Below, piece after piece: positions 6,521 through 24,921 of a stretch of 64,000 nt of DNA. The position numbers and the translations under genes were made by a program. The stretch's first letter is position 1, and each line of letters starts with the position of its first letter. The notes below the pieces were generated by a model, which was not told the DNA's origin, did no database searches, and saw only the letters and a list, made by a program, of their open reading frames with translations. Source of the DNA: Dehalococcoidia bacterium (lineage in GTDB: Bacteria; Chloroflexota; Dehalococcoidia; Bin125); assembly GCA_965203165.1 (NCBI GenBank), contig OZ241849.1, forward strand, positions 1,680,563 to 1,744,562, given 5' to 3'.

Positions 6521-6625
6521 ACCCCCAACCCACCCCGGCCACTTACCAAGACCTACCAAACCCGACCACGCCCCACCACCCCCCAACCAGCTGAACACCC
6601 CAAGCCAGGCAAGCATGAACACGCC

Positions 6626-7831
6626 CTAAGAGTGTTGGGAGAAAGAGAGACGCAGGTCGGCGAGGAGCAGCCCGGGAATCTCCATGGCCGGAAAGTGGCC
6701 ACCCTCGGGGAACTCGGTCCAGTGCGCGACATTGAAGGCGCGCTCGCACCAGCTGCGCGGAGGCAGCGGGGTGCCGCGCACCAGCCGGGCGAAGCCGGTC
6801 GGCACGGCGACGCGCTCGCCCTCGCGCAGCCGCACCTGCCCGCCCAACTCGGCCTCAACCTCCGCCGCCGGCCGGCCGGCCTCGTGGTAAATGCGCATCG
6901 AGGAGTTGATCGTCTCCGTGAACCAGTAGATCGAGATGGTCGCGAGCAGCTCATCCATCGTGAAGCGGCGCAGGATGTCGCCGCCGCGCGGCGCCTCCTC
7001 GGGGCGCATGCAGTCGCTGAGCATCCACCACTTATCCACAATCCAGGCCGCGAGCCCGACGGGCGAATCGGCCAGCCCGTAGGAGAGCGTTTGAAAGCGG
7101 GTGCCGTGGATGGCGCGGTGAGCGGCGTCTTCGCGCACGTAGGGCGCCTGCTCGTCGCGGAAGAAGCGCTCCTCTTGCTCGGATTGCGCGCGCGCGGCCG
7201 CGCCGGGCGGGGCGAGGGCGGCGGCGGTGAGGTGCAGCGCGCGCAGCCGCTCCGGATGGCGCAGGCCCAGTTGGCCGCCGACCGCCGCGCCCCAGTCGCC
7301 GCCGTGATAGGCGAAGCGCTCGTAGCCGAGCTCGCGCATCAGCCGCGCCCAGAGGTCGGCGATGGCGGCCGGGCCGAGGCCGGCGCGGCGGGGGATGTCC
7401 GACCAGCCGTAGCCGGGCAGCGAGGGCGCGACGACGTGAAAGGCGGGCGCGGTCGGATCGTCGGGCTCGGCGAGCGCGTCGATGATCTTGTGGAATTCGT
7501 AGACGGAGGAGGGCCAGCCGTGCTGGATCAGCAGCGGAACAGCGTCGGCGCGCGGGCTGCGGCGGTGGATGAAGTGGATCCGAAGCGTCTCGCCGTTGGC
7601 GCAATCAAGCGGAGCGCGAAATTGCGGGAAGGCGTTGAGCCGCCGCTCAACGGCGCGCCAGTCGAAGCGCTCAACCCAGTGCTCGCAGAGCTCGCGCAGG
7701 AACGCAAGCTCGACGCCGTAGAGCCAGGCGGAGCCGGGCACTTCAGGCAGCCAGCGGGTGTTGCGCAGGCGCTCGCGCAGCGCCGCGATTTCGGCGTCGG
7801 GAACGGCGATGGTGTAGCGCTCGGGCTGCAT
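6626..7831 (-). CDS. Epoxide hydrolase (microsomal-EH-like N-terminal domain plus alpha/beta hydrolase)
   Basis: EHN domain motifs and the HGWP oxyanion motif. Paralogous to the adjacent gene. Confidence 0.85.
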   Translation of the reverse strand: MQPERYTIAVPDAEIAALRERLRNTRWLPEVPGSAWLYGVELAFLRELCEHWVERFDWRAVERRLNAFPQFRAPLDCANGETLRIHFIHRRSPRADAVPLLIQHGWPSSVYEFHKIIDALAEPDDPTAPAFHVVAPSLPGYGWSDIPRRAGLGPAAIADLWARLMRELGYERFAYHGGDWGAAVGGQLGLRHPERLRALHLTAAALAPPGAAARAQSEQEERFFRDEQAPYVREDAAHRAIHGTRFQTLSYGLADSPVGLAAWIVDKWWMLSDCMRPEEAPRGGDILRRFTMDELLATISIYWFTETINSSMRIYHEAGRPAAEVEAELGGQVRLREGERVAVPTGFARLVRGTPLPPRSWCERAFNVAHWTEFPEGGHFPAMEIPGLLLADLRLSFSQHS

Positions 7832-7840
7832 CCCCCGCGC

Positions 7841-9022
7841 CTAGCGCAGCGGGCGGAAGAAGTCGCGGATGTCCTGCACCAACAGATCAGGCTCTTCGAG
7901 AGCGGCGAAATGGCCGCCGCGGTCGTGCACCGACCACTGCTGGATGTTGTAGCCCGCTTCGCACCAGCTGCGCGGCGCCGTGATGATCTCGCCGGGGAAA
8001 ATCGAGAAGCCGGTCGGCGTTTCGAGCCGCCCGGGCAGAAAGTTCTCCGCCTGGTTCTGGCGCATCTCGTAGTAGTAGCGCGTGCTGCTGTTGATCGTGC
8101 CGCTGAACCAGTAGATCGAGATGTTGGTCAGAATCTCGTCCTTGCTGAAGCGCTTCTCGATCTCCCCGTCGCAGTCGCTCCAGGCTCGCCACTTCTCCGT
8201 GATCCAGCCCGCCAGCCCGGCCGGCGAATCCGTCAGGCCGTAGGCCAGCGTTTGCGGCCGCGTGCCCTGGATCGCCTGATAGCCCGTCTCCTGCGCCTGC
8301 CATTCAGCCATCTTGGCGGCAATCGCCTTCTCCTCGTCGCTCCACTCTTCCTGCGGGCGGTCCGTGGGCGGGCGGCCGATCGGCATGTTGATCTGCGCGC
8401 CGACGCAGTTCTCGGGATGCTGGTAGGCGACCTGCGCGGTGACGATCGCGCCCCAGTCGCCCCCCTGCGCGCCGTAGCGCTCGTAGCCGAGCTGCTTCAT
8501 CAGCGCGCCCCAGAGCAGCGCCGTCCGCTTCTGCCCGAAGCCGCCGGCCGCGGGAATTTCCGAGAAGCCGTAGCCGGGCAGCGAGGGCGCGACGACGCTG
8601 AAGGCGTCGGCCGGGTCGCCGCCGTGCGCGGCCGGATCGGTCAGCGGACCGAGGATCTTGCTGACCTCATAGAAGGTGCCCGGCCAGCCGTGCGTAAAGA
8701 CGAGCGGCAGCGGGTTGGGACCCACGCCCTCCTGATGCACGAAATGCACCGTGTAGTCGTCCACCCCGTCGGCGCTGACCGCTTCGGTGAACTGCGGCAT
8801 GCGGTTGAGGTAGGTCTCCTGCACGCGCCAGTCGAAATCGTTGCGCCAGTATTCGCAGAGCTCCTGCATGTAGGCCAGGTTGGAGCCGTACTGCCAGCCG
8901 CTGTCCGCCACTTCGGAAGGCCAGCGGGTCTGCGCCAGGCGGCGCTTGAGGTCGCGCAGGTCGGTGTCGGTGACTTCGATCGTGAAGGGCTGCGGCATTC
9001 GGTCGGTCCTCTCCCGGCTCAA
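7841..9022 (-). CDS. Epoxide hydrolase, tandem paralog
   Basis: The same architecture as 6626..7831 (THGWPGTF). Confidence 0.85.
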   Translation of the reverse strand: MSRERTDRMPQPFTIEVTDTDLRDLKRRLAQTRWPSEVADSGWQYGSNLAYMQELCEYWRNDFDWRVQETYLNRMPQFTEAVSADGVDDYTVHFVHQEGVGPNPLPLVFTHGWPGTFYEVSKILGPLTDPAAHGGDPADAFSVVAPSLPGYGFSEIPAAGGFGQKRTALLWGALMKQLGYERYGAQGGDWGAIVTAQVAYQHPENCVGAQINMPIGRPPTDRPQEEWSDEEKAIAAKMAEWQAQETGYQAIQGTRPQTLAYGLTDSPAGLAGWITEKWRAWSDCDGEIEKRFSKDEILTNISIYWFSGTINSSTRYYYEMRQNQAENFLPGRLETPTGFSIFPGEIITAPRSWCEAGYNIQQWSVHDRGGHFAALEEPDLLVQDIRDFFRPLR

Positions 9023-9076
9023 GCGTGTGGTGGCTGCGTTGCGCAGTATCGCACCCGCGCAGGCGCGGCGGGCAGA

Positions 9077-9319
9077 TCAGCCCTCCACGACATCGCCGGA
9101 GACCGGGTCGATCCGCACGCCCTTTTCGACGACCCAGGCAAGCCCGCGCTCGATCTCGTCGGCGTCGCCTTCGAGTTCGAGCACGACCCAGCCGAAATCC
9201 TGCTCGACAGCGGCCATGCGGATGTTGGTCACGACCTCGAACTCGCGGCCGAGCAGGTAGATGACCGGCTCGCGGACGGCGTCGCCCTCGAAGGTGAAGC
9301 GGACTCGGCGCGTGGCCAT
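9077..9319 (-). CDS. Stand-alone NIL-domain protein (MetN C-terminal-like small ferredoxin-fold domain)
   Basis: 80-aa product resembling the NIL domain. Located immediately downstream of a threonine-synthase-like gene. Confidence 0.5.
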   Translation of the reverse strand: MATRRVRFTFEGDAVREPVIYLLGREFEVVTNIRMAAVEQDFGWVVLELEGDADEIERGLAWVVEKGVRIDPVSGDVVEG

Positions 9320-9358
9320 GGCGGCTCTCCTGCCCGGCTTGGGGCGCGGCTGGCTTGC

Positions 9359-10594
9359 TCAGCTCTGCCCGGCGGCGGCGAATGCGTCCTCAAACGATTG
9401 CAGCGTGCCCTCGACCGGAATCGGCCGAGTCACGTGCGGCTCGACGGCGTCGGCCGTTTTGAGGCCGCCGCCGGTGATGAAGGCGACGGTCGATTCGTCG
9501 GGGTCGATGATCTCGCGCTGGAGCGCCTGGCGCAGCCCGGCGATCGTCACGCCGCCGGCGGTCTCCGCGAAGACGCCCTCGCTCTCCGCGAGCAGCTGGA
9601 TGCCCTCGACGACTTCGGCGTCGCTGACCGAGGCCGCCCCGCCGTCGGTCGCCGCCATCGTCTTGAGCGCGTAGTAGCCGTCCGCCGGGTTGCCGATCGC
9701 CAGGCTCTTGGCGATCGTGTCCGGCTTGACCGGGCGGATGTTGGTCGTGCCGTTCTGCCAGGCGGTCGCGATCGGCGAGCAGCCCGTCGCCTGCGCGCCG
9801 ACCATCCGCACCTCCGACTCGTCGATCAGCCCGTAGCTCTGCAGCTCCTCGAAGCCCTTGTGGATCTTGGTGAAGAGCGAGCCGGAGGCCATCGGCGCAA
9901 CGCACTGCCGCGGCGCCCGCCAGCCCAACTGCTCCGCCACCTCAAACGCGAGCGTGCGCGAGCCCTCCGAGTAATAGGGCCGCACATTGATGTTGACGAA
10001 CGCCCAGTGCCGGTTGTCGGCCAGCTCCGAGCAGAGCCGGTTGACATCGTCGTAGGAGCCGTTCACCGCGACGATCGTGGGGTGATAGATCGCCGAGCCG
10101 AGCACTTTGCCGGCTTCGAGGTCGTGCGGGATGAAGACGACCGCCCGCATCCCGGCCCGCGCGGCGTGCGCCGAAACCGCGTTGGCCAGGTTGCCGGTCG
10201 AGGCGCACGCCAGCGTCTCGAAGCCCAGCTGACGCGCCCGGCTGCTGGCCACCGCGACCACCCGATCCTTGAACGACCAGGAGGGATTGCAGGTGTCGTT
10301 CTTGATCCAGAGCTCGCGCATCCCAAGCCGGCGGGCCAGATTGTCGGCGCGCAGCAGCGGCGTGCAGCCCACGTTGAGGTCGACGATGTAGTCGGCGTCC
10401 ACGGGCAGCATGTCCTTGTAGCGCCAGATCGAGCGCGGGCCGGCCTCGATCCGTTCGCGCGTCACGCGCGCCTGAATCGCGCCCCGGTCGTATTGCACTT
10501 CGAGCGGGCCGAAGCAGAAATCGCAGACGTTGATCGGGTCGAGCGGAAACTCGCGGCTGCACTCACGGCAGGCGAGGTGTGTGGCGTTGGTCAT
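9359..10594 (-). CDS. Threonine synthase family PLP enzyme with an N-terminal Zn-ribbon (ThrC or ThrC-like sulfhydrylase)
   Basis: CxxC...CxxC ribbon. PLP lysine motif SFKDR. Fold-type II PLP enzyme of about 410 aa. Confidence 0.8.
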   Translation of the reverse strand: MTNATHLACRECSREFPLDPINVCDFCFGPLEVQYDRGAIQARVTRERIEAGPRSIWRYKDMLPVDADYIVDLNVGCTPLLRADNLARRLGMRELWIKNDTCNPSWSFKDRVVAVASSRARQLGFETLACASTGNLANAVSAHAARAGMRAVVFIPHDLEAGKVLGSAIYHPTIVAVNGSYDDVNRLCSELADNRHWAFVNINVRPYYSEGSRTLAFEVAEQLGWRAPRQCVAPMASGSLFTKIHKGFEELQSYGLIDESEVRMVGAQATGCSPIATAWQNGTTNIRPVKPDTIAKSLAIGNPADGYYALKTMAATDGGAASVSDAEVVEGIQLLAESEGVFAETAGGVTIAGLRQALQREIIDPDESTVAFITGGGLKTADAVEPHVTRPIPVEGTLQSFEDAFAAAGQS

Positions 10595-10741
10595 CGTTGG
10601 GGAAGCTTTCGGGTAGGAGGCGAGAGGGCGTGCGCGCGGCCTGTTGGGGCAACCCCCAATCAGGCCTCCGGCATCGCCATGCGGCCCTCAGCCGCGGCAT
10701 CCGTCCCCGTGCAAGCGCGCGTGCTCATCGGGCGCAGCCTA

Positions 10742-11284
10742 TCACGCGACGGCCCAGGTGGGGGTTTCGATTTGGTGGATGTTGTTGGTGTTGACGATGG
10801 TTAGCAGTTCGGCGATTTGGAGCTGGTCGGGGGGGATGGCGCGGGAGGGGGCTAAGTCGGCCAGGGGGCGGAGGACGAATGCGCGCTCGCGGAGGCGGGG
10901 GTGGGGGATGTTGAGGCGGGGGTGGGCGACGGTTTGGGAGCCGTAGAGCAGGATGTCGATGTCGATGGCGCGCGGCCCCCAGCGGCGCTCGCTGCGGACG
11001 CGGCCGAGGCGGGCTTCGATGGCCTGCGTTTGGTCGAGCAGGTCGAGCGGCGCGAGGTTGGTTCGGCCGCGCAGGGCGGCGTTGAGGAAGGGCGGCTGGT
11101 CTGCGTCGCCCCAGGGGGGGGTTTCGTAGAGGGCGGAGACGCGGACGTCGGCGAGGATGGCGCGCAGCGCGGCGGCGGCGGCGCGCAGCGCGGCGCGGCG
11201 GTCGCCGAGATTCGCGCCGAGCCCGAGGAAGACATCGACGGTGGGGGCATCGGGCGCGGCGGGCAGATTGGGCATGTCAGGCAC
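10742..11284 (-). CDS. folK: 2-amino-4-hydroxy-6-hydroxymethyldihydropteridine pyrophosphokinase (HPPK)
   Basis: Motifs VFLGLGANLGD and RWGPRAIDIDIL. Confidence 0.85.
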   Translation of the reverse strand: MPDMPNLPAAPDAPTVDVFLGLGANLGDRRAALRAAAAALRAILADVRVSALYETPPWGDADQPPFLNAALRGRTNLAPLDLLDQTQAIEARLGRVRSERRWGPRAIDIDILLYGSQTVAHPRLNIPHPRLRERAFVLRPLADLAPSRAIPPDQLQIAELLTIVNTNNIHQIETPTWAVA

Positions 11285-12101
11285 GGCGGACCACGGCGTC
11301 GGCGATTTTGGCGACGCGGATCATTTCGGGCACATCGTGGACGCGCAGGAGGTCCGCGCCGTTGGCGACGGCGATGGCGGCGGCGGCGGCGGAGCCCTCG
11401 AAGCGCTCGCGCGGGGACCAGCCGAACTGCCCGCCGGTCAGGCGTTTGCGCGAGAGGCCGGCCAGCAGCGGCCGTCCGGCGGCGCGCAGCTCGCGCAGGC
11501 GGTCGAGGATTTCGTAGTTCTGCCCGGGCGGCCAGCCGAAGCCGAAGCCGGGATCGAGGATCACGCGCTGCTCGGGAATGCCGGCGGCGCGGGCGCAATC
11601 GAGCGAGGCGGCGAAGCCGTTGAGCAGGGCGGCGACGGGATCGGCGGCGGCGGGGCGTCCGCGCCGGTTGTGCATCGCGATCACGGGCGCGCCGTAGCGC
11701 GCGGCGATCTCGGCGAGGCGGGGATCGCCGCGCAGGCCGTTGATGTCGTTGAGCGCGGCTGCGCCGGCGCAGAGCGCGGCTTCGGCGACTTCCGGCTTGG
11801 TCGTGTCGATGCTGATCGGCGCGGCGACTCGGTTGGCGCGGATCGCTTCGAGCACGGGCAGCACGCGGGCCAGCTCGACTTCGAGCGGGACGGGCTGGAA
11901 GCCGGGCCGAGTGGATTCGCCGCCGAGGTCGATCAGGTCGACGCCGTCGCGGCACATTTGCAGCGCGCGCTCAACCGCGGCGTCGACGTCGGACAGCCCG
12001 TCGCCGGCGAAGGAGTCGGGCGAGAGGTTGAGGATGCCGACGATGTAGGTGCGGGAGCCCCAGACGAACTCGCGGCCGGCGATGCTGAGCGGGGCGGGCA
12101 T
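11277..12101 (-). CDS. folP: Dihydropteroate synthase
   Basis: Motifs GILNLSPDSF and DLIDLGGESTRPG of the pterin-binding domain. Overlaps folK by 8 nt. Confidence 0.9.
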   Translation of the reverse strand: MPAPLSIAGREFVWGSRTYIVGILNLSPDSFAGDGLSDVDAAVERALQMCRDGVDLIDLGGESTRPGFQPVPLEVELARVLPVLEAIRANRVAAPISIDTTKPEVAEAALCAGAAALNDINGLRGDPRLAEIAARYGAPVIAMHNRRGRPAAADPVAALLNGFAASLDCARAAGIPEQRVILDPGFGFGWPPGQNYEILDRLRELRAAGRPLLAGLSRKRLTGGQFGWSPRERFEGSAAAAAIAVANGADLLRVHDVPEMIRVAKIADAVVRRA

Positions 12102-12104
12102 GGG

Positions 12105-12641
12105 TCAGAGCTCGCGCTCGCGGACGCGGGGGCGTCCGTCCTGCTGGATGGTTTCGAGCAGCAGGCGCCGCGGGGGCGCGTCTGTCTCGCCGATTTCGAG
12201 GGCGATTTCGCTGGGCACCACCGAGTCGGGCTCCGCGCCTTCGTCAATCCGCCAGGCGCGCACGCCGGGCTCGGCGTCCATCAGCGTGACGAGCACCCAG
12301 AACGGCCAGGGATTGGGCCCGCGGTGCAGGCGGGCGATGTTGAGGTCGGTCGGAGACGGCCGCGCTTCGCTGGCGACATGCGAGTGGTAGATCACGAGCA
12401 TGTCGCCGTCGCTGCGCTCAATCGCGTTGTAGAGGTGAAGCAGTTCCTGCGGGGGGATGTTAAAGCGCCAGGGGGAGGCTTCGGCGTTGGTGGTGCGGTA
12501 GAGGGTGAGCGCGCCGTCGGCGGCGCGCGCGATGATGCCGCAGCACTCGTTGGGCGCGTCCTGCTGCGCGTGCGCGATCATCTCGTCGACCAGCTGCTGC
12601 GGGAGCGTGAGCGTGGGTTGGTCAGTCATTAGGTCGGTCAT
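12105..12641 (-). CDS. JAMM/MPN+ (Mov34) metalloprotease, Mec+/CysO-hydrolase-like
   Basis: JAMM motif ECCGII...HSHVASEARPSPTDL. Start taken at MTDLMTDQ, with ATGA overlap to the upstream gene. The track's N-terminal extension was rejected as Arg/Pro-rich. Confidence 0.8.
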   Translation of the reverse strand: MTDLMTDQPTLTLPQQLVDEMIAHAQQDAPNECCGIIARAADGALTLYRTTNAEASPWRFNIPPQELLHLYNAIERSDGDMLVIYHSHVASEARPSPTDLNIARLHRGPNPWPFWVLVTLMDAEPGVRAWRIDEGAEPDSVVPSEIALEIGETDAPPRRLLLETIQQDGRPRVREREL

Positions 12642-13252
12642 CGGGCTGCCGCTGTCTGCGTCGGCTGGCTGTTGGACCAGAAGGTACGCGCTTCGTGGTG
12701 GGGGACCTCTTCGCCCCAGCTGTCCCAGCCGGGCGCGCGGCTGCGGGCGAAGAGCTCGATCTTGGACTGGTCGGGGAACATTCGCTCGATGCGGTCGCGG
12801 ACCTCGCGCGGTTTCTCGGAGTGCCGCCCGCGCGGCGCGCTGACCAGCTGGCGAACGTCGCGGCGGCCGCGCGGCTGGGGGATGCGCCCGCGTTTGAAGA
12901 CGAGGCAGAGCTCGCACTGCGAGAGCGTGTAGTGGCCGGGGTTGACGCGCTGCTTGTCCCAGATGAAAGCGACGGTGGCCCAGGCGAAGCCCCAGGCTTT
13001 GCCCAGCTCGATCGCCTGATCGAGGTGCGGCGAGGTGGCCCAGAGGAAGAGCACGCAGTCGTCGGCTGCGATCTCCTGCACGGGCAGTTGCGCCAGGTCC
13101 CGGCTGGCGACGGTGGAAAAGTGCCGCGCCGCGCCGCCGCTGTCGCCGCTGCCGGGCCCGGCGTGCTGCAGCTGGCCTTTGTAGTCCCAGGGCGGGTCGG
13201 CGTAGATCACGGCGTAGCGCCGCTGCGGGAGCGGGGGGAACTCGGTCAGCAT
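12638..13252 (-). CDS. MT-A70 family (DPPW) adenine methyltransferase
   Basis: Hallmark YADPPWDY motif and a 204-aa length typical of the bacterial MT-A70 clade. Confidence 0.75.
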   Translation of the reverse strand: MLTEFPPLPQRRYAVIYADPPWDYKGQLQHAGPGSGDSGGAARHFSTVASRDLAQLPVQEIAADDCVLFLWATSPHLDQAIELGKAWGFAWATVAFIWDKQRVNPGHYTLSQCELCLVFKRGRIPQPRGRRDVRQLVSAPRGRHSEKPREVRDRIERMFPDQSKIELFARSRAPGWDSWGEEVPHHEARTFWSNSQPTQTAAAR

Positions 13253-13644
13253 GTCGGCTCCGGGCGCCAGTCGCGCAGCGGGCCGTCGTCGTGGCAGGCG
13301 CCGGGCGTGAGCTGCATCTTGAGCAGCGTGCGGCTGAGCTGCGGCGCGATCAGGTGGTCGAGCCAGTGCTCCCGCTCGTCTTCGGGGACGATCTGCGCGA
13401 GGTCGGCGAAGCGAATGTGGATCTCGTGCTCGTCGGCGACGATGCCGAAGTCGAGCACCGGCTTGCCCGGCCGCAGCAGGCGGCCGATCGTGTCGCTGCG
13501 CAGGATGCGGTTGTCGGGGCGCTCGAGGTAGCGCTCAAGCACGCCGGCGCGGAAGCGCAGGGGCAGCGCGGCCGCGTCGCCGCTGGCGGCGGCGCGCGCG
13601 ACCGTGCGCCGCCAGACGGGGTCCGAGGGCGGGTCCGCGGGCAT
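13246..13644 (-). CDS. Hypothetical protein (132 aa) translationally coupled to the MT-A70 gene
   Basis: GC3-rich ORF with a 7-nt overlap to the downstream gene. No recognisable domain. Confidence 0.4.
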   Translation of the reverse strand: MPADPPSDPVWRRTVARAAASGDAAALPLRFRAGVLERYLERPDNRILRSDTIGRLLRPGKPVLDFGIVADEHEIHIRFADLAQIVPEDEREHWLDHLIAPQLSRTLLKMQLTPGACHDDGPLRDWRPEPTC

Positions 13645-13653
13645 CTCGCGCGC

Positions 13654-14499
13654 TCAGGCGGAGGGGTTGTCGATCGGCACGCCGACCACGCTGCCGTACT
13701 CGGTCCAGGAGCCGTCGTAGTTGGTCGAGTTCTCGATGCCCAGCAGGTAGCGCAGCGCGAACCAGCTGTGCGAGGAGCGCTCGCCGATGCGGCAGTAGGC
13801 GATCACCGGCTGGTCGCCGCTGATGCCCTTGCTCCCGTAAATCTCGCGCAGCTCGTCGGCCGGCTTGAAGGTGCCGTCCTCGGCGACGGCGCTGGCCCAG
13901 GGAATGTTGGACGCGCCGGGCACGTGGCCCTTGCGCTGCGCGGTTTCGGGCAGGCCGGGCGGGGCCATGATCACGCCGTTGAACTCGTCGGGCGAGCGCA
14001 CATCGACCAGCTGGCCGCCCACGCCGATGTGGGCGATCACGTCGGGCAGCTTGGCGCGGATCGACTCGTCGCGCTCGGCGACCGCGATCGAGCCCGCGGC
14101 CGGCGCGGGGGCGTCGGTGCTGGTCGGGCGGCTCTCGGCCAGCCACTTGACCCGCCCGCCGTCCATCAGCGCGGTGTTGGCCACGCCGTACATCTCGAGC
14201 ATCCAGAGCGCGTAGGCCGCGAACCAGTTGTTGTTGTCGCCGTAGAGCACGATCTGCGAGTCGTCGTTCGCGCCCGCGCCGCGCAGCAGCGTTTGCACGG
14301 TCTCGCGGCTGGCCACATCGCGCTGCACCTGATCCTGCAGCTGGCTGGTCCAGTCCCAGGCCACCGCGCCGGGCGGGTGGCCCTCGTCGTACGCGCCGGT
14401 GTCGACGTCGACTTCGATCAGGCAGACGGCGGGGTCGTCGAGGTGCTCGGCGACCCACTGCGTGCTGACCAGCTTTTCGGGGTGTGCGTATTCGGTCAT
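13654..14499 (-). CDS. sseA: Thiosulfate/3-mercaptopyruvate sulfurtransferase (tandem rhodanese domains)
   Basis: Two rhodanese domains and the active-site loop CRIGERSS. Confidence 0.85.
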   Translation of the reverse strand: MTEYAHPEKLVSTQWVAEHLDDPAVCLIEVDVDTGAYDEGHPPGAVAWDWTSQLQDQVQRDVASRETVQTLLRGAGANDDSQIVLYGDNNNWFAAYALWMLEMYGVANTALMDGGRVKWLAESRPTSTDAPAPAAGSIAVAERDESIRAKLPDVIAHIGVGGQLVDVRSPDEFNGVIMAPPGLPETAQRKGHVPGASNIPWASAVAEDGTFKPADELREIYGSKGISGDQPVIAYCRIGERSSHSWFALRYLLGIENSTNYDGSWTEYGSVVGVPIDNPSA

Positions 14500-14563
14500 C
14501 GTTCTCGTCCTTTCGCGGAGCGTGCAGAGTGCTCCGCAGTTGCGCGTGTTGGGGCGGCGGGAA

Positions 14564-15544
14564 TCACCACCAGATTTTGCCCTCGATCGTTTCGTCGCCG
14601 GCGATGTCCTCGTAGTCGCGCGCCCAGAGGCCGGTGGAGAGGTACTTCCAGCCGCCGTCGGCGAGCAGGACGACGATGTGGGCGGTGTCGGCGCGCTCGG
14701 CGATGCGCTGCGCGGCGCGGACCGCCGCGCCGCAGGAGATGCCGGCGAAGACGCCCTCCTCTTCGAGCAGCGATTTGGTCACGGCGAAGGAGGTGCGGCT
14801 GTCGATCACGATGCGTCCGTCGAGCACGGACTCGTCGAGCACCGGCGGGATGTAGCCCTCGTCGAGGCTGCGCAGCCCCTGCACGAGGTCGCCGGGGTGC
14901 GGCGCGGCGGCGACGACTTTGATCTCGGCGCGCTGTTCTTTGAGGTAGCGGCCCACGCCGGTCAGCGTGCCGCCGGTGCCCAGCCCGGCGACGAAGTGGG
15001 TGATCTCCGGGCAGTCGCGCAGGATTTCGGGGCCGGTCGTCTCGTAGTGCGCGTTGGGGTTGGCGGCGTTTTCGTATTGCATGGGCATGAAGACGCTGGG
15101 GTCTTCGGCGTAGAGCTGTTTGGCCATGCGCACCGCGCCGTTGCTGCCCTGCTCGCCGGGCGAGAGGATCACTTCCGCGCCGAAGAAGGTCAGCAGGTCG
15201 CGCCGCTCGACGCTCACGCTCTCGGGCATCACGCAGCGCACCGGATGGCCGCTGAGCCGGCCGATCATCGCGATCGCCAGCCCGGTGTTGCCGCTGGTCG
15301 GCTCAAGGATCGTTTGGCCGGGCTGCAGCGAGCCGTCCGCGTGGGCGGCATCGAGCATGGACCGGGCGATGCGGTCTTTGACCGAGCCGGTCGGGTTCTG
15401 GCCCTCGAGCTTGACCCAGATCGCGGCGTCGGGATTGGGCGAGAGGTTGTTGAGCCGGACCAGCGGCGTGTTGCCGATCGTCTCCAGCAGGGAGCCGAAG
15501 CGGGCGGGCGGCGCAGCCACGGCGGCAGGGGCGGCGGTGGTCAT
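14564..15544 (-). CDS. cysM: Cysteine synthase B-like (CysM, the CysO-thiocarboxylate-dependent type)
   Basis: PLP motif SVKDR, fold-type II. The start overlaps the CysO stop (ATGA). Confidence 0.85.
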   Translation of the reverse strand: MTTAAPAAVAAPPARFGSLLETIGNTPLVRLNNLSPNPDAAIWVKLEGQNPTGSVKDRIARSMLDAAHADGSLQPGQTILEPTSGNTGLAIAMIGRLSGHPVRCVMPESVSVERRDLLTFFGAEVILSPGEQGSNGAVRMAKQLYAEDPSVFMPMQYENAANPNAHYETTGPEILRDCPEITHFVAGLGTGGTLTGVGRYLKEQRAEIKVVAAAPHPGDLVQGLRSLDEGYIPPVLDESVLDGRIVIDSRTSFAVTKSLLEEEGVFAGISCGAAVRAAQRIAERADTAHIVVLLADGGWKYLSTGLWARDYEDIAGDETIEGKIWW

Positions 15545-15819
15545 CGGCGGCCGCCCGCCAGGGCCGGCAGAATCGCCAGCACGTCGCCGTCGCTCAGCGC
15601 GGTTTCGAGACCCTCCAGGAAGCGGATGTCTTCGTCGTTGAGGAAGATGTTGACGAAGCGGCGCAGTTCGCCCTGCTCGAGCAGTTGGTCGCCGATGCCG
15701 GGGTAGGCGCGTTCGAGCGAGGCGAGCAGGTCGCCGACGTTGGCCGATTCGAGTTGGACGGACTTCTGCCCGTCGGTGAACTTTTGCAGCATCGACGGGA
15801 CGCGGACTTCAACCGGCAT
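15541..15819 (-). CDS. cysO: MoaD/ThiS-family sulfur-carrier protein CysO with a C-terminal Gly-Gly-Arg-Arg tail
   Basis: 92-aa beta-grasp protein ending ...ILPALAGGRR. Sits directly upstream of cysM. Confidence 0.8.
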   Translation of the reverse strand: MPVEVRVPSMLQKFTDGQKSVQLESANVGDLLASLERAYPGIGDQLLEQGELRRFVNIFLNDEDIRFLEGLETALSDGDVLAILPALAGGRR

Positions 15820-15856
15820 TGGGGGTGATCCTCTCCAGGGAGTCTCTGCGCCGGCG

Positions 15857-16960
15857 CTAGCCGCCGGCCGCGGCTGCGGGGCCCTCGTGGAAGGGCGAGC
15901 CGCAGAATTCTTCGTAGTCGATCAGCTCGGTGACGCTGGGCGCGTCGCCGCAGAGCGGGCAGGCGGGGTCGCGGCGGATTTTGACGGTGCGGAAGTCCAT
16001 CGCCAGCGCGTCGTAGAGCAGCAGGCGGTTCTTGAGCGGCTCGCCCTGCTCCAGCAGCACCTTGATCGCCTCGGTGGCCTGGATCGCGCCGATCGTGCCC
16101 GGCAGCACCCCGAGCACCCCCGCCTCCGAGCAGGAGGGCACCATCCCCGGCGGCGGCGGGCTGGGGTAGAGGCAGCGGTAGCAGCCCTGCCCGGGGAAGA
16201 ACGTGGTGACCTGCCCCTCGAAGAGGAAGATGCTGCCGTCGACGAGGATCTTCTCGGCCAGGAACGCGGCGTCGTTGACCAGGTAGCGGGTGGCGAAGTT
16301 GTCCGCGCCGTTGATGATCACGTCGTACTGCGGGATGATCTCCATCGCGTTTTCGGAGGTCAGCGGCTGGGTGTGGGTCTGGACGACGATGTTGGGGTTG
16401 AGGTCGGCGATGCGGTCCTGCGCGGATTCGACTTTGGGGCGTCCGATGTCGCTGGTGCCGTGGATGATCTGGCGTTGGAGGTTGGAGCGGTCGACGACGT
16501 CGAAGTCGACGATGCCGAGGGTGCCGATGCCGGCGGCGGCGAGGTAGACGAGCACGGGCGAGCCGAGCCCGCCCGCGCCGACGGCGAGCACTTTGCCGTC
16601 GATCAGCTTGCGCTGCCCGAGGGGGCCGACCTGGTCCATGATCAGGTGGCGGGAGTAGCGCTCGACCATTTCGGGCGTCATGGCCGCGCCGCCGGCGAGC
16701 GCGGGAATCACGGCCACTTCATCGCCGTCGCTGACCAGGGTGTCGGTGCCCTGCAGTGCGCGAATCTCCTGGCTGTTGAGATAGACGTTGACGTGCTCGA
16801 GCAGCTCCTGCTCGCCGTCGAAGACCATTTCGCCGAAACCCGGGTAGCGCTGGTCGAGGTCGCGCAGCACGCCGTGGACATCGCTGCCGCCGGCCTCGAC
16901 GAAGGTGCGGTTGCCGGTGATCTTGCGGAAGGGGGTGGGAATGTAGACCTTGACGGGCAT
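15857..16960 (-). CDS. In-frame fusion of a MoaD/CysO-like ubiquitin-like domain (91 aa, ending ...IPALAGG) and a ThiF/MoeB-type E1 adenylyltransferase (274 aa) joined by Ala-Ala
   Basis: ATG at 16960 with GAAGGAA about 8 nt upstream. No stop codon between GG and the E1 Rossmann motif (LAVGAGGLGSP). E1 CxxC pairs are present and there is no rhodanese domain. The track's 887-aa ORF N-terminal extension was rejected. Confidence 0.75.
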   Translation of the reverse strand: MPVKVYIPTPFRKITGNRTFVEAGGSDVHGVLRDLDQRYPGFGEMVFDGEQELLEHVNVYLNSQEIRALQGTDTLVSDGDEVAVIPALAGGAAMTPEMVERYSRHLIMDQVGPLGQRKLIDGKVLAVGAGGLGSPVLVYLAAAGIGTLGIVDFDVVDRSNLQRQIIHGTSDIGRPKVESAQDRIADLNPNIVVQTHTQPLTSENAMEIIPQYDVIINGADNFATRYLVNDAAFLAEKILVDGSIFLFEGQVTTFFPGQGCYRCLYPSPPPPGMVPSCSEAGVLGVLPGTIGAIQATEAIKVLLEQGEPLKNRLLLYDALAMDFRTVKIRRDPACPLCGDAPSVTELIDYEEFCGSPFHEGPAAAAGG

Positions 16961-16983
16961 GGGGCGTTCCTTCGCTGTTGGGC

Positions 16984-17919
16984 TCAGTCGTTGTCGAGCG
17001 GCATGCTGAGGTAGCGCTCGCCGGTGTCGCAGATCGTGGTGACGACGCGGCGGCCGGGGCCGAGCTGGCGGGCGATTTCGACGGCGGCGTGGACATTCGC
17101 GCCGGAGGAGATGCCGGCGAGCACGCCTTCCTCGCGGGTCAGCCGGCTGGTCATCGCGATCGCGTCCTCGTCGCTCACGCCGATCACCTCGTCGTAGATC
17201 TCGCGGTTCAGGACGCCGGGCACAAACGACGCGCCGATGCCCTGGATTTGGTGGACGGCGAAGCGTCCGCCCTGCAGGACGGGCGAGCGCAGCGGTTCGA
17301 CGGCGACGATTCGCAGGTCGGGCTTGCGCTCGCGGAGCCACTCGCCGACGCCCGTGATCGTACCGCCCGTGCCCACGCCGGTCACGAACGCGTCGAGTTC
17401 GCCGTCCAGCGCGGCCCAGATTTCGGGCGCGGTGCTGCGGCGGTGGATTTCCGGGTTGGAACGGTTGAGGAACTGCTGGGGCATGAAGTAGCCCGGTTCG
17501 GCCGCCAGCTCTTCGGCGGCGAAGACGGCCCCGGTCATGCCCTCGATCGCGGGCGTGAGCAGGACTTCCGCGCCGAAGCGCTCCAGCAGCCGGCGGCGTT
17601 CGCGGCTCATGTCCTCGGGCATCGTCAGGATCAGCCGGTAGCCCTTGACGGCGCAGACCAGCGCCAGGCCGACGCCGGTGTTGCCGGAGGTGGGCTCGAC
17701 GATCGCGTCGCCGGGCTGCAGCGCGCCGCTGCACTCGGCGTCCTCGATCATCGCGCGGGCGATGCGGTCTTTGACCGAGCCGCCGGGGTTGAGCGATTCG
17801 AGCTTGGCGACGAGCTCGGCGGCGGCGGGCGGCGCGACCCGGCTGAGCCGCAGCATCGGCGTCGCGCCGATCAGGTCGAGCACGGTTTCGGCGACTGGAG
17901 GCCGCTGGATGGTCGTCAC
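16984..17919 (-). CDS. cysK: Cysteine synthase A (O-acetylserine sulfhydrylase)
   Basis: PLP motif SVKDR and the TSGNTG loop, 311 aa. Confidence 0.9.
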   Translation of the reverse strand: MTTIQRPPVAETVLDLIGATPMLRLSRVAPPAAAELVAKLESLNPGGSVKDRIARAMIEDAECSGALQPGDAIVEPTSGNTGVGLALVCAVKGYRLILTMPEDMSRERRRLLERFGAEVLLTPAIEGMTGAVFAAEELAAEPGYFMPQQFLNRSNPEIHRRSTAPEIWAALDGELDAFVTGVGTGGTITGVGEWLRERKPDLRIVAVEPLRSPVLQGGRFAVHQIQGIGASFVPGVLNREIYDEVIGVSDEDAIAMTSRLTREEGVLAGISSGANVHAAVEIARQLGPGRRVVTTICDTGERYLSMPLDND

Positions 17920-17964
17920 TGAGGCTCGCGTTTCCGCTCGTGTGTGTGCGTGGGTGTGGGGCGG

Positions 17965-18399
17965 TCAGATGTGGTAGCGGCCGCCGGCAGCGGCCTCCTG
18001 GCGGGCGAGGTCTTCGACGGTGCGCCCGCCGAGCACCTGCAGAATGGCCGCCTGCACATCCGCCCAGAGGCGGACCTGTGCGGCGGCCCCCGTACAGCGC
18101 TCGACGGGCGCTTCGTCGAGGCAGGCGGCGGGCACGATCGGGCCTTCGAGCGCCTGCACGACGGCATCGAGCCGGATCGCGTCGGCGGGCAGCGCCAGCT
18201 GGTGTCCGCCCTGCGCGCCGCGCGTCGAGCGGATGAAGCCGGCCGTGCGCAGGCGTCCCAGCACCTGCCCCACGAGCGAGGCGGGAATCGCCTGGCGCAG
18301 CGCGATCTCGCTGCTGGGGATCGGCCCCGCGCCGGCCTGCTGGGCCAAATCCACGAGCGCGCGAATGCCGTAATCGCTCTTGCTGGACAGCTTCATCAT
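17965..18399 (-). CDS. Rrf2-family transcriptional regulator (CymR/IscR-like)
   Basis: N-terminal wHTH (SSKSDYGIRALVDLA). Diverges from cysH. Confidence 0.85.
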   Translation of the reverse strand: MMKLSSKSDYGIRALVDLAQQAGAGPIPSSEIALRQAIPASLVGQVLGRLRTAGFIRSTRGAQGGHQLALPADAIRLDAVVQALEGPIVPAACLDEAPVERCTGAAAQVRLWADVQAAILQVLGGRTVEDLARQEAAAGGRYHI

Positions 18400-18421
18400 G
18401 GCGGGTGGGCCGGCTCGGTTG

Positions 18422-18440
18422 GATGCCCGATTGGGGCATC
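18422..18440. promoter_or_regulatory. Palindrome GATGCCC-n5-GGGCATC in the Rrf2/cysH divergent intergenic region (candidate operator). A second palindrome CGAAAT-n6-ATTTCG lies at about 18466-18483
   Basis: Seen directly in the sequence. Sits 23 nt upstream of the Rrf2 start. Confidence 0.3.
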
Positions 18441-18513
18441 GGCGCTACGATGCTGACAATCCTAACCGAAATGGTCCGATTTCGCCCGGACGCCCCGGAG
18501 TTGTGAGTGTCGC

Positions 18514-19275
18514 ATGCCACACCAAGCGCCGCCCGATCAACCGCTGCCAGACCAACCGCTGCTTGCCGAGTACGACGCCGCCGAGGCCGCCGCGCGGCTG
18601 GAGCGCGCGCATCCGGCCGACATCGTGGCGGAGGCGCTGGAGCGCTTCCCGGGGCTGAGCATCTCGTTCAGCGGCGCGGAGGACGCGGCGCTGATCGATA
18701 TGGCGCACCGCGCGGCGGGGCCCGACGGCTTCCGCGTCTTTTCGTTGGACACGGGGCGGCTGCACGGCGAAACGCTGGCCTACCTGGAGACGGTGCGGGA
18801 GCGCTACGGGATCACGATTGAGACGTTTCACCCGCAGGCGGCGGCGGTCGGGGCGCTGGTGCGCGAGAAGGGGCTGTTCTCGTTTCGGCGCGACGGCCAC
18901 GCCGAATGCTGCGGGATTCGCAAGGTGGAGCCGCTGGGCCGGGCGCTGGAGGGCGTGATCGCCTACGCCACGGGGCAGCGCAAAGACCAAAGCCCGGGCA
19001 CGCGCGCGGAGTTGCCCGTGGCGCAGCGCGACGGAATGCGGGTGAAATTCAACCCGCTGGCCAACTTCCGCTCAGAGCAGGTCTGGGACTACATCCTGAG
19101 CTACGGCGTGCCCTACAACCCGCTGCACGATCGCGGCTTCAAGTCAATCGGCTGCGAGCCCTGCACCCGCGCGACGAACCCGGGCGAGCACGAGCGGGCG
19201 GGCCGCTGGTGGTGGGAAGAGGCGACGCAGAAGGAGTGCGGCCTGCACGCGATCAATCTGGCTGAGGACCGCTGA
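18514..19275 (+). CDS. cysH: Adenylylsulfate (APS)/PAPS reductase, thioredoxin-dependent, Fe-S type
   Basis: PAPS_reduct domain. Cys pairs CCGIRK and CEPCT are typical of APS reductases. Confidence 0.85.
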   Translation: MPHQAPPDQPLPDQPLLAEYDAAEAAARLERAHPADIVAEALERFPGLSISFSGAEDAALIDMAHRAAGPDGFRVFSLDTGRLHGETLAYLETVRERYGITIETFHPQAAAVGALVREKGLFSFRRDGHAECCGIRKVEPLGRALEGVIAYATGQRKDQSPGTRAELPVAQRDGMRVKFNPLANFRSEQVWDYILSYGVPYNPLHDRGFKSIGCEPCTRATNPGEHERAGRWWWEEATQKECGLHAINLAEDR

Positions 19276-19534
19276 GCGCCGCGCGGAGGCGGCGGGCGAG
19301 CGCGCCCGGATCGATCCGCTCGGCGGCGAGCTCAATCTCGTCGGCGTTGAGACGCAGGGCGACGACCGGCACGCGCGCCGCATGGCGCTGCGCGAGGGCC
19401 GGGTCGGACTCGACGCCGCACTCCGACCAAGGGAGGTCCAGCGCGGCGGCGATCGAGCGCACGGTTTCGCGGGCGCGATCGCAGGCGGCGCACTCGGCGC
19501 GGCGGTAGAGGACAATTCGAGGTTCCGCGTTCAT
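19253..19534 (-). CDS. Glutaredoxin-like small thioredoxin-fold protein (CxxC = CAAC)
   Basis: Start at MNAEPRIVLYRRAECAAC. 93 aa. Converges with, and overlaps, the cysH 3' end. Confidence 0.55.
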   Translation of the reverse strand: MNAEPRIVLYRRAECAACDRARETVRSIAAALDLPWSECGVESDPALAQRHAARVPVVALRLNADEIELAAERIDPGALARRLRAALSGPQPD

Positions 19535-20498: not shown

Positions 20499-20619
20499 GC
20501 GAGCCTACCGCGCGCGGCAGTGGCGGGCGCCGCGAGCCGCGCACCAAGCCCCGCTCGCAGCGCCGACCCTCCTCCCGCCACCCCTGCGCCCCCTCCCGTC
20601 ACCCCTGCGCCCCCTCCCG

Positions 20620-20643
20620 TCATTCCTGCGTAGGCAGGAACCA
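20620..20643. repeat. REP2 element (gtcattcctgcgtaggcaggaacc)
   Basis: Member of a dispersed family. Other copies at 44828-44880, 45079-45125, 49314-49606 (x4) and 61589-61618. Confidence 0.8.
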
Positions 20644-20715: not shown

Positions 20716-20762
20716 CGCCCCAATTCATCCCTCCCCCCTCTCTGGGGGGAGGGATGAATTGG
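20716..20762. repeat. Near-perfect 19-bp-stem palindrome ccccaattcatccctccccc...gggggagggatgaattgggg (motif recurs at about 45026-45060)
   Basis: Seen directly in the sequence. Confidence 0.7.
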
Positions 20763-20919
20763 GGTGAGGAGTGGTGCGGTAGCTCTGTGCTGGGCGCGGC
20801 GAAGCGTGGGTACGACGGGCAGAGGGTGGGTGGAGGAGCGGCCCAGGTGGGCCGTCGCAGCATCGTGGCGCGCACAGACGCTGGAAGTCCGCCTGGATTG
20901 CGAGCTCAAGACCGCCCAC

Positions 20920-22500
20920 TCAGAGCAGGCGGCGGCGCTCCCAGGAGGCGGGGATGGGCAGATCAGGGAAGCGGCCCGCGAAGTAGTCGGCCAGCGACCA
21001 GAGTTGGACTGCGGGGTATTCGCGGTCGCCGATTGCGACTCGCCCGGCGCGGCCGGCGGCGGCGCGCACGCCCGCGCTGACCTCGTCCATCGTCAGGAAC
21101 ACGCCGAGGTCGGCGCTGGCGTCGTCGAGCGCGCTGCGGAAGGCCTGCACATCGGCGGGAGCGACGCGGCCGGATTTGACCTGGGCGACAGCGAGTCCGT
21201 CGGGGCGGCGGCGGCCCTCGGTTTTGCGGAAGCGCATTCGCCCGTCGATGCCGCCGTCGCCGCGCTGGCGCTCGTTGGGGCGGAAGCCGCGCAGCCGCTG
21301 GATTGCCCAGGTCTCGAACTGGAAGGGGTCGCGGCCGGCGAGGTCGCGCGCCGAGCCGAGGTCCTGCGGCGCGCCCAGCACGCGCGGCTCGACGCCGATC
21401 TCGTTGAGCCAGTCTTCGACGATGCCGATGGCGAGATGGGTGATGTCGATTCCGGCCCAGCGGCGGCCGAGATTTTCGGCGGCGACGACGGCTGTGCCGC
21501 AGCCGCAGAAGGGATCCAGCACGAGGTCGCCGGGGTTGGAGGCGAGGCTGATGATCCGCTCGAGCAGGCGGAGCGGCTTTTGCGTCGGATAGCCCCGCCG
21601 CGTCAGATCCCGCGAGCCGAGCGGGGGAATGTCCACCCAGACATCGCCCAGCGGCATCCCGCGCTGCTCGTCGAGGTAGCGCACGTAGCGGGGCACCGCG
21701 CCGGGGCGGGCCTGGACAATGCGGCCCTCGTCGTATTCCTGCTGCATCCGCTCGCGCGTCCAGCGCCAGACGCGCGTGACGCCCAGGAACTCATAGGTGA
21801 GGTTGGGCCGCTCTTTGTGGGGATTGACCAGGTTGTCGAGGGCGTACCGCCGACCATCCGCGTCCTCATGCCGGTAGTGCTCGAGCGTCGCCGGATCGAT
21901 GTTTTTCGGGTCGTACGGGACGAATACTTCATCCATGTTCCAAACGGCGTCGGGGCTGCCCGCGTAGGCGAAGATCATGTCGTGGTTGCGGGGCAGGCGG
22001 CGGGTGGCGAGGCCTTTCGCCGCTGTTCTGCGCCAGATGATCTGGTTGCGAAAGTTGTCGCCATGAAAGGCGGCGTCCATCACCAGCTTCAGATAATGGC
22101 CGGCGGTGGTGTCGCAGTGCAGAAAGATGTTGCCGCTGGGCTTGAGCACGCGGCGCAGCTCGACCAGCCGCACGCCCATCATGCAGAGATAGGCCGTGAG
22201 CTGGTTTTCGCCGATCGAATCGGTCAGCGCGTTGAGCAGGTTGCCGGTCGGCGTGCCGTTGAGATCGAGCAGCGCGTCGACGGCGTCCGGCCCCCAGTGC
22301 CAGGTGTCTTCAAAGGCGCGGATTTGCGAGGGCGCGGTGTTGCCGCTCTCGTCGCGGAAGAGCACATTGTAGCTGGCGTTGGAATTGAACGGCGGGTCGA
22401 GATAGACGAGGTCCACCGAGTGGTCGGGAAACTCGTTGCGCAGCACATCGAGGTTGTCGCCGTAGAAGAGCGAGCCTTCAAGGCCGGTGGCGTCGGGCAT
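20920..22500 (-). CDS. N4/N6 DNA methyltransferase (beta-class: DPPF motif before FxGxG) fused to a C-terminal Mrr-like (Mrr_cat, PD-D/ExK) restriction-endonuclease domain
   Basis: Motifs YLDPPFNSN and LDPFCGCGT. The C-terminal part carries D-GGIDG...Q-K, diagnostic of the Mrr catalytic domain. Confidence 0.8.
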   Translation of the reverse strand: MPDATGLEGSLFYGDNLDVLRNEFPDHSVDLVYLDPPFNSNASYNVLFRDESGNTAPSQIRAFEDTWHWGPDAVDALLDLNGTPTGNLLNALTDSIGENQLTAYLCMMGVRLVELRRVLKPSGNIFLHCDTTAGHYLKLVMDAAFHGDNFRNQIIWRRTAAKGLATRRLPRNHDMIFAYAGSPDAVWNMDEVFVPYDPKNIDPATLEHYRHEDADGRRYALDNLVNPHKERPNLTYEFLGVTRVWRWTRERMQQEYDEGRIVQARPGAVPRYVRYLDEQRGMPLGDVWVDIPPLGSRDLTRRGYPTQKPLRLLERIISLASNPGDLVLDPFCGCGTAVVAAENLGRRWAGIDITHLAIGIVEDWLNEIGVEPRVLGAPQDLGSARDLAGRDPFQFETWAIQRLRGFRPNERQRGDGGIDGRMRFRKTEGRRRPDGLAVAQVKSGRVAPADVQAFRSALDDASADLGVFLTMDEVSAGVRAAAGRAGRVAIGDREYPAVQLWSLADYFAGRFPDLPIPASWERRRLL

Positions 22501-22506
22501 GGGGCG

Positions 22507-24759: not shown

Positions 24760-24921
24760 CAACGCCTCGAATCCTCCACAAGGCAGCCTACTAGGGCGCG
24801 CCCACGCATACCGCAAACCTCGTCACCTCTACTCCACCCCCTCCGCACCAGCGCGCACACCCGCCACTGGAGCTAGTGCGCCGGCATCTGGGAAGGGCCG
24901 GAATAGGGCTGCGCCGAGTGC

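Follow-up and report, generated by a model that had tools for sequence, protein, structure and literature searches.

A conserved operon of Dehalococcoidia predicted to make cysteine by a protein-thiocarboxylate route, and a methyltransferase gene within it that is probably a restriction-modification remnant

A 64,000-nucleotide stretch of a Dehalococcoidia bacterium (Chloroflexota; GenBank assembly GCA_965203165.1, contig OZ241849.1, positions 1,680,563 to 1,744,562 of the forward strand), here called the window, raises the question of which pathway is served by a packed run of genes for two ubiquitin-like sulfur-carrier domains, an E1 enzyme, two cysteine synthases, a rhodanese and a JAMM peptidase, and of why a gene for an MT-A70 methyltransferase sits among them. 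We consider it quite likely that the locus is a sulfur-assimilation operon in which cysteine would be made by a protein-thiocarboxylate route of the Mycobacterium tuberculosis type beside conventional CysK, and that the MT-A70 gene is a remnant of a restriction-modification system. The core of this reading is supported by homology and by conserved gene context.

The run consists of eleven minus-strand genes with successive gaps of 45, 23, 37, -4, 64, 9, -7, -4, 3 and -8 nucleotides (nt), of which the 64 nt between cysM and the rhodanese gene are the largest, all other neighbours lying closer or overlapping. An earlier note on this DNA had described eleven packed or overlapping genes on this strand, and all of them lie where it had placed them with no gap above 64 nt; the interval of 12105-18399 that it gave for them leaves out folP and folK. 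All domain calls passed the Pfam gathering thresholds, including every domain for which the earlier note had proposed a search. Because the G+C content of the window is ~70%, it holds many long spurious open reading frames (ORFs), and gene starts were chosen from domain position and upstream context. The ORFs at 12105-12917 and 15857-18520 are over-extended, with real starts at 12641 and 16960, and the long frames at 6101-10804 (plus strand, 1567 aa), 20764-24876 (plus strand, 1370 aa) and 15857-18520 (minus strand, 887 aa) are antisense or over-extended artefacts of the G+C content and not genes. No terminator-like site was found within the operon on the operon strand, in a promoter and terminator scan that is uninformative at 70% GC, as it returned 0 promoters and as many terminators as expected from shuffled sequence; an Rfam search of the operon found no riboswitch or other element. 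From the first gene of the unit to the last, the run reads as follows.

17965-18399, minus strand: Rrf2-family (CymR/IscR-like) regulator, first gene of the unit (Pfam Rrf2, E=4.8e-31)
16984-17919, minus strand: cysK (Pfam PALP, E=1.3e-76; TIGR01139)
15857-16960, minus strand: ThiS::ThiF fusion of a CysO-like ubiquitin-like domain (Ubl) and a MoeB-type E1 (Pfam ThiS, E=5.9e-14; ThiF, E=2.3e-79)
15541-15819, minus strand: cysO, the free carrier (Pfam ThiS, E=7e-16)
14564-15544, minus strand: cysM, its start overlapping the cysO stop by 4 nt (Pfam PALP, E=2e-68)
13654-14499, minus strand: tandem-domain rhodanese (Pfam Rhodanese, two domains, E=5e-28)
13246-13644, minus strand: 132-aa protein of an orphan family
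12638-13252, minus strand: MT-A70 / M.MunI-like methyltransferase (Pfam MT-A70, E=5.8e-24)
12105-12641, minus strand: JAMM/MPN+ zinc metallopeptidase, its start overlapping the MT-A70 stop by 4 nt (Pfam Prok-JAB, E=2.4e-21)
11277-12101, minus strand: folP, dihydropteroate synthase, separated from the JAMM gene by 3 nt (Pfam Pterin_bind, E=1.1e-66)
10742-11284, minus strand: folK (HPPK), last of the packed run (Pfam HPPK, E=4.1e-40)

Six context look-ups, together with a scan limited to a single genome for each species, yielded 86 loci, referred to here by L numbers, which were annotated by tblastn with the window proteins. The whole order, with cysH divergent and then Rrf2-CysK-Ubl::E1-CysO-CysM-rhodanese-132aa-MT-A70-JAB-folP-folK, is shared by 37 of the 86, all of them metagenome-assembled genomes (MAGs) of Dehalococcoidia/Chloroflexota, at identities from 53% to 100%. 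Neighbourhood comparison, which the earlier note had suggested, thus shows an arrangement repeated in 37 relatives, and this goes beyond chance. The core Rrf2-CysK-Ubl::E1-CysO-CysM is widespread in Chloroflexota, and more distant loci carry it, or most of it, in other arrangements.

L087: Rrf2-CysK-Ubl::E1-CysO-CysM-JAB-FolP::FolK
L096: as L087, except that a peroxiredoxin separates CysM from JAB and that cysH has sulfite reductase and ATP sulfurylase next to it
L088: Rrf2-Ubl::E1-CysO-CysM-rhodanese-125aa-JAB-FolP-FolK
L089, L097 and L098: the five-gene core alone, without JAB beside it

What lies between cysM and the JAMM gene thus varies among these distant loci, from nothing in L087 to a 1-Cys peroxiredoxin in L096 (10560-11195). 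The JAB-folP-folK adjacency is kept in all relatives with JAB, and folP and folK, following the JAMM gene, would be conserved passengers on its transcript.

CysM and CysO have their closest solved relatives in M. tuberculosis. CysK passes the TIGR01139 cysK equivalog model (421.8 bits against a cutoff of 351) and is of the O-acetylserine sulfhydrylase A type. CysM passes only the cysK/M subfamily model (NCBIfam TIGR01136), and its best PDB match is M. tuberculosis CysM (3DKI, E=2.8e-95), ~22 orders of magnitude ahead of the next family (6e-73), with CysM or CysK of the E. coli type as the next-best group. In alignment it keeps the equivalent of Arg220 (GLR against ALR in the M. tuberculosis enzyme, numbered from the tagged chain), and its C-terminal EGKIWW aligns with the ...EGxxW tail of that enzyme. 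By homology, CysM would therefore be a sulfhydrylase of the M. tuberculosis subtype, with a predicted specificity for O-phosphoserine. The best PDB match of the free CysO is M. tuberculosis CysO (3DWG_C, E=2.4e-22), which is also the best match of the Ubl of the fusion, the two carriers being 41% identical to one another. In these respects the earlier note, which had read a CysO/CysM/Mec+ core with one free carrier domain and one fused to the E1, was borne out, and its calls of JAMM, E1, rhodanese, CysK and Rrf2 were confirmed as well.

The Ubl of the fusion occupies residues 1-91 and ends in PALAGG. The E1 part that follows has E. coli MoeB (1JW9) as its best solved match, aligned over the full length, and carries GxGxxG, two CxxC motifs and the loop cysteine. 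Because two CxxC motifs are the criterion used in PMC3227635, we assign the E1 to the MoeB and not the MoeZR type, which has a MoeZ domain with a C-terminal rhodanese; Pfam, NCBIfam and PDB comparison detected no rhodanese domain in the fusion. The function is plausibly equivalent to that of MoeZR in spite of this difference in architecture. At least 120 cluster representatives of the fusion were found at 63-92% identity, nearly all with ThiS+ThiF architecture, and the internal PA[LI]AGG end of the Ubl is kept in 118 of 120, followed by a variable linker of 2-9 residues. That the diglycine is invariant though internal argues for cleavage behind it, or at least for its recognition. A separate E1 translated from an internal start was considered and rejected as unlikely, since the Met with which the E1 domain begins is often replaced by Leu or Val among homologues. 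The free CysO of the window ends in ...ALAGG-RR, two residues beyond the diglycine, and a tail of 1-20 unconserved residues (A, AR, AH, RR, DHPVVGGHR and others) follows ALAGG in every readable locus of the clade; CysO ends at the diglycine in L088 and L089, as in M. tuberculosis. With RR behind the diglycine here, and 1-20 residues behind it throughout the clade, CysO would need processing.

The rhodanese is of the thiosulfate sulfurtransferase type with the active-site loop CRIGER, and its best PDB matches are the Thermus thermophilus enzyme 1UAR (E=1.8e-92) and M. tuberculosis CysA2/SseA (3AAX/3HZU). The JAMM motif E...HSHx7SxxD is intact in the translation (NECCG...HSHVASEARPSPTD); the protein reaches 55.5 bits with the NCBIfam desampylase model, below the cutoff, matches 2KKS and Pyrococcus JAMM1 (5LDA) in the PDB, and is Mec+/desampylase-like by family similarity. 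The 132-aa protein has no match in Pfam, NCBIfam, PHROGs or PADLOC. Its family is small, with 30 clusters at 59% identity or more in a word-indexed search and 65 matches in a profile search of 1.84 billion representatives, and a P-[GA]-A-C-H-D-D-G...R.W motif is invariant in its alignment. The gene keeps a constant place, behind that of the rhodanese in L088, L091 and L092 and ahead of JAB in L088, L093 and L094, and both it and the rhodanese gene are absent from L087 and L096. As it co-occurs with the rhodanese and has a conserved cysteine, our guess is that it acts with the rhodanese in loading the carrier. A role as partner of the MT-A70 methyltransferase or as a restriction endonuclease was rejected, since the gene occurs between rhodanese and JAB without MT-A70 (L088, L092-L094).

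In M. tuberculosis, MoeZR loads CysO, CysM adds O-phosphoserine and Mec+ releases cysteine (PMC3227635). By analogy, the MoeB-type E1 of the window would adenylate the C-terminal glycine of CysO and, because it lacks the fused rhodanese of MoeZR, the separate tandem rhodanese would supply the persulfide sulfur for CysO-COSH, with the 132-aa protein, more speculatively, assisting the loading through its cysteine-containing sequence. CysM would then condense O-phosphoserine with CysO-COSH, and the JAMM peptidase would free cysteine and regenerate CysO, as their M. tuberculosis homologues do. In view of the 1-20 residue tail of CysO and the invariant diglycine that joins the Ubl to the E1, the single JAMM peptidase most probably trims pre-CysO as well, and may separate the Ubl from the E1. 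We infer thiocarboxylate formation and every one of these JAMM cleavages from homology. Precedents for the maturation of ubiquitin-like carriers are given by QbsD acting on QbsE and by HvJAMM1 acting on linear SAMP fusions.

How far the locus departs from known systems depends on the system with which it is compared. With mec-cysO-cysM (Rv1334-1336) and MoeZR of M. tuberculosis it shares a diglycine carrier of the ThiS/MoaD fold, a JAMM peptidase, an E1, a rhodanese function and CysK, together with a CysM that is closest to the M. tuberculosis enzyme and keeps its Arg220 equivalent. It differs from that system in that the E1 lies in the operon, is of the MoeB type with two CxxC motifs and lacks a fused rhodanese, a separate tandem rhodanese being present instead; in that CysO has a tail after the diglycine; in that an Rrf2 regulator stands in place of AosR; and in that the unit also takes in CysK, folP and folK, along with the extra 132-aa orphan protein. 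The survey by Iyer, Burroughs and Aravind (2006) described an operon class, 4c, of ThiS/MoaD, E1, JAB and cysteine synthase that includes Chloroflexus, as well as ThiF proteins with an N-terminal ubiquitin-like domain beside free ThiS (PMC1779556). The window operon shares both this combination of components and this fusion architecture; in class 4c, however, the E1 is fused to a rhodanese and here to a Ubl instead, and the Ubl-ThiF fusions of 2006 were mostly in thiamine operons, unlike the fusion in the window. The statement of the earlier note that the locus goes further than the known route therefore holds in part: the architecture does differ from that of M. tuberculosis, but the five-gene core is common in Chloroflexota, and operons and fusions of these kinds were catalogued in 2006 (PMC1779556). 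Three features stay distinctive: a MoeB-type E1 that is encoded in the operon and joined to a second carrier, a CysO with an obligatory tail, and a stand-alone rhodanese with a new, putative 132-aa partner.

JAMM peptidases also expose or recycle the diglycine end of ubiquitin-like carriers in the quinolobactin system (QbsE/QbsD/QbsC) and in the archaeal SAMP/HvJAMM1/UbaA system. Carriers with extra C-terminal residues or in linear fusions are common to these systems and to the window operon; their output, however, is a siderophore, molybdenum cofactor, tRNA thiolation or protein conjugation, and here it would be cysteine, with cleavage predicted from homology.

The MT-A70 gene requires a separate account. 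Its product matches the 204-residue PADLOC MTase_II model PDLC03262 over its full length (E=4e-61) and PHROG 359, DNA methyltransferase (E=1.7e-66), and has an intact DPPW motif in alignment; Iyer et al. grouped M.MunI with the MT-A70 clade (PMC4738411). An exact-sequence look-up of the window MT-A70 gave no match, and homologues number in the thousands. In ~50 loci, the gene is found at 67-80% identity in unrelated neighbourhoods of five phyla, several of them on complete chromosomes and most as solitary copies, the hosts being Acidobacteriota, Alphaproteobacteria, Gemmatimonadota, Acidimicrobiia and other Dehalococcoidia; such identity across phyla suggests horizontal spread. Outside the cys operons no conserved neighbour of MT-A70 was found, only lineage-specific neighbours and GC-rich spurious ORFs. 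Within the operon family, the sister operons L087, L088 and L096 lack MT-A70, as do L093 and L094, in the last two of which the 132-aa homologue directly precedes JAB.

The clearest view of the site comes from L045 (OZ241913.1, a 3.4-Mb Dehalococcoidia chromosome), which belongs to the same species as the window because the two are 97% identical in DNA over 7.5 kb. Sixty-base comparisons gave 58-60 of 60 identical bases on both flanks (97-98%), and a drop to 34-55 of 60 that coincides with the MT-A70 gene. The breakpoints fall within the final codons of the 132-aa gene and at the junction of MT-A70 stop and JAMM start, and the two MT-A70 alleles are 76% identical. L045 has an extra 178-aa ORF before MT-A70 that encodes a MunI-family type II restriction endonuclease (Pfam PF11407, 2.4e-14; PADLOC REase_II), homologues of which adjoin MT-A70 in L016 and L006, in L021 with a frameshift, and in L056, a locus from another phylum. 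No homologue of this endonuclease was found in the 64-kb window, so that the MT-A70 gene is solitary there. In a neighbour-joining tree the MT-A70 proteins group mostly by lineage, and the window and L045 alleles fall in different subclades. Other debris is seen at or near this site: in L004 (8784-10004) a decayed N-terminal MT-A70 fragment with a PaREP1 (HEPN-like) gene, in L021 (9453-11950) the frameshifted MunI-like endonuclease gene with two tandem MT-A70 genes, and in L011 (8466-8567) a partial duplicate of the 132-aa gene at the rhodanese-JAMM hot spot.

By homology and context, then, the MT-A70 protein is a predicted solitary type II DNA N6-adenine methyltransferase of the M.MunI kind encoded in a recombination hot spot, and not an enzyme of the cysteine pathway. 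A restriction-modification cassette would have lodged between the 132-aa and JAMM genes in one subclade, where strains exchange it by recombination, and the window gene would be the solitary survivor of that mobile cassette. With the MunI-type type II system (R.MunI, PF11407, and M.MunI) it shares the MT-A70 fold with DPPW, the full-length match to a type II methyltransferase and, in L045, L016, L006 and L056, the MunI-family endonuclease beside it; it differs in that the window methyltransferase stands alone.

The earlier note had taken MT-A70 for a component of the operon, and one could go on to propose that it is an integral, selected one that methylates operon promoter DNA, RNA or a protein of the pathway and so ties the supply of sulfur and S-adenosylmethionine (SAM) to methylation. 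Such a role would agree with the intact DPPW motif, with the constant position of the gene in all 37 loci and the overlap of its stop with the JAMM start, and with an operon whose products lead to cysteine, from there to methionine and SAM, and to folate. It does not agree with the absence of MT-A70 from sister operons, with close homologues in unrelated contexts of five phyla, with its full-length match to a type II methyltransferase model, with its pairing with a MunI-family endonuclease in four loci, with alleles only 76% identical and breakpoints at the gene ends in two conspecific genomes, or with the tandem duplicates and decayed fragments at the site; together these largely refute it, and we regard it as highly improbable. 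Another alternative concerns the second carrier. If the E1-fused Ubl is never cleaved and serves in cis for docking, autoinhibition or the recruitment of partners, only free CysO would carry sulfur. This is a real possibility, if an unlikely one, which gains from the view of Iyer et al. (2006) that the ThiF-fused ubiquitin-like domain probably has a role differing from that of the neighbouring free ThiS (PMC1779556), from the very short linker of 2-9 residues, and from the presence of the fusion in loci without an adjacent JAB (L089, L097 and L098). The linker is unconstrained in sequence and length, however, and the strict conservation of PA[LI]AGG at an internal position, in 118 of 120 representatives, is difficult to account for unless a free Gly-Gly carboxylate or recognition by JAMM is required; cleaved fusions have precedents, among them MoaX, a Ubl fusion mentioned as such in PMC3227635.

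At the opposite end, the JAMM peptidase might mature both carriers and so feed two thiocarboxylate branches, from CysO to CysM and from the freed Ubl to the adjacent CysK-type enzyme or another acceptor, with the 132-aa protein as a new persulfide relay or carrier-loading factor acting through its invariant ACHDDG cysteine; we hold this elaboration to be doubtful. Improbable, in our judgement, is that Ubl, E1 and JAMM serve mainly or additionally in protein conjugation of the SAMPylation or TtuB-like kind, with CysO, the freed Ubl or both placed on lysines of target proteins, for example CysK or CysM, and taken off again by JAMM as a control on sulfur metabolism. Archaeal SAMP1 and HvJAMM1 reportedly regulate a metabolic enzyme reversibly (PMC4443979), the PDB matches of the window JAMM include Pyrococcus JAMM1, and the NCBIfam scores for SAMP1 (57.9 bits, cutoff 60), UbaA (368 bits) and desampylase are near threshold. 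All three scores are nonetheless below their cutoffs, the carrier has M. tuberculosis CysO as its best match and its gene is translationally coupled to an M. tuberculosis-type cysM, and there is no E2 or E3; as dual function is known in archaea, conjugation would in any case be compatible with a cysteine-forming operon. That preferred explanation has points against it too. The E1 could also act on a MoaD or ThiS encoded at another place in the genome. No JAB adjoins the core in the three distant loci L089, L097 and L098, so that the JAMM gene is not obligatorily linked or is encoded elsewhere, and in L014 (2577-12400) an inversion puts Rrf2-CysK-Ubl::E1-CysO-CysM-rhodanese-132aa on the opposite strand while MT-A70-JAB-folP-folK stay together, leaving JAMM grouped with MT-A70, folP and folK and transcribed apart from its presumed substrates. 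As for the methyltransferase, its steady position and overlap in the 37 loci tell against a mere remnant, and a secondary benefit of co-expression with the operon is conceivable.

Upstream of the operon, the following features bear on its regulation and surroundings.

18514-19275, plus strand: cysH, adenosine 5'-phosphosulfate (APS) or 3'-phosphoadenosine 5'-phosphosulfate (PAPS) reductase, divergent from the operon (Pfam PAPS_reduct, E=1.1e-43)
18452-18484, no strand assigned: block conserved between the divergent genes rrf2 and cysH (consensus GAAATnnnACnATTTC..GATTnTC, from a 31-locus alignment)
19253-19534, minus strand, start trimmed: Glrx-like DUF836 gene (Pfam Glrx-like, E=1.2e-8, residues 30-107 of a long ORF)

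The Rrf2 protein scores above the cutoff of the NCBIfam rrf2_super model and below that of the CymR equivalog (93.8 bits, cutoff 195). Inside the block conserved among the 31 loci lies a palindrome, CGAAAT-N6-ATTTCG, at 18467-18484, which makes the block a plausible candidate for the Rrf2 operator and promoter region of both divergent units; a Rrf2/CymR-like repressor would bind the palindrome between rrf2 and cysH and control both. The cysH translation has the CC...CxxC and ECGLH motifs of the APS-reductase type, and its divergent placement is kept in relatives. Of the two genes once described as divergent from the operon, cysH is indeed so placed, and the glutaredoxin-like gene is not: it lies on the minus strand downstream of lgt, convergent with cysH and outside the divergent unit, in an lgt-glrx order that relatives keep.

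One more gene of methylation and restriction lies in the vicinity. At 20920-22500 (minus strand), 2.5 kb upstream of the operon and between resB and lgt, is a gene for an N6_N4 DNA methylase fused to an Mrr_cat restriction-endonuclease domain, present only in some relatives (L001, L009, L011, L012 and L045) and so a second variable gene of the restriction-modification type nearby. At least two of the related MAGs, MPMJ and MPNM, are symbionts of the sponge Aplysina aerophoba, whose symbiont community was reported to be enriched in restriction-modification genes (PMC5649159); a literature search for MT-A70 in sponge symbionts returned nothing specific.

Elsewhere in the window, threonine-synthase-like PALP genes at 9359-10594 and 24922-26094 (both minus strand), each with an N-terminal Cys-rich, zinc-ribbon-like stretch, bring the PALP enzymes within 17 kb, with CysK and CysM, to four. 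The thrC-like gene at 9359-10594 was rejected as a part of the system, as it is not kept beside the operon in relatives; synteny with L045 stops right after folK, at ~10750 of the window, so that the downstream block including thrC is strain-specific. Tandem paralogues of epoxide hydrolase (EHN and alpha/beta hydrolase) lie at 6626-7831 and 7841-9022 (both minus strand), and a glutamyl/glutaminyl-tRNA synthetase gene at 33405-35314 (plus strand) is followed by tRNA-Gln(CTG) and tRNA-Glu(CTC). A dispersed intergenic repeat of ~25-40 nt, with copies 94-97% identical, is found at 20602-20642, 44853-44888, 45099-45124, 49306-49340, 49450-49489, 49541-49565 and 49578-49603, with several copies also in the L045 locus and a palindrome at 20718-20764; it looks like an element of the repetitive extragenic palindromic (REP) or miniature inverted-repeat transposable element (MITE) type.

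Taken as a whole, the comparison points to an M. tuberculosis-type protein-thiocarboxylate route to cysteine as a conserved operon in Chloroflexota of the class Dehalococcoidia, including relatives that are sponge symbionts. The fusion of an E1 with a carrier, together with a tailed free carrier, would make JAMM-dependent maturation of ubiquitin-like proteins in bacteria directly testable, and the locus flags a small, uncharacterised protein family tied to rhodanese and JAMM. The MT-A70 gene, for its part, would be a clean case of a restriction-modification cassette that swaps alleles inside a biosynthetic operon, and it warns against deriving function from operon membership.

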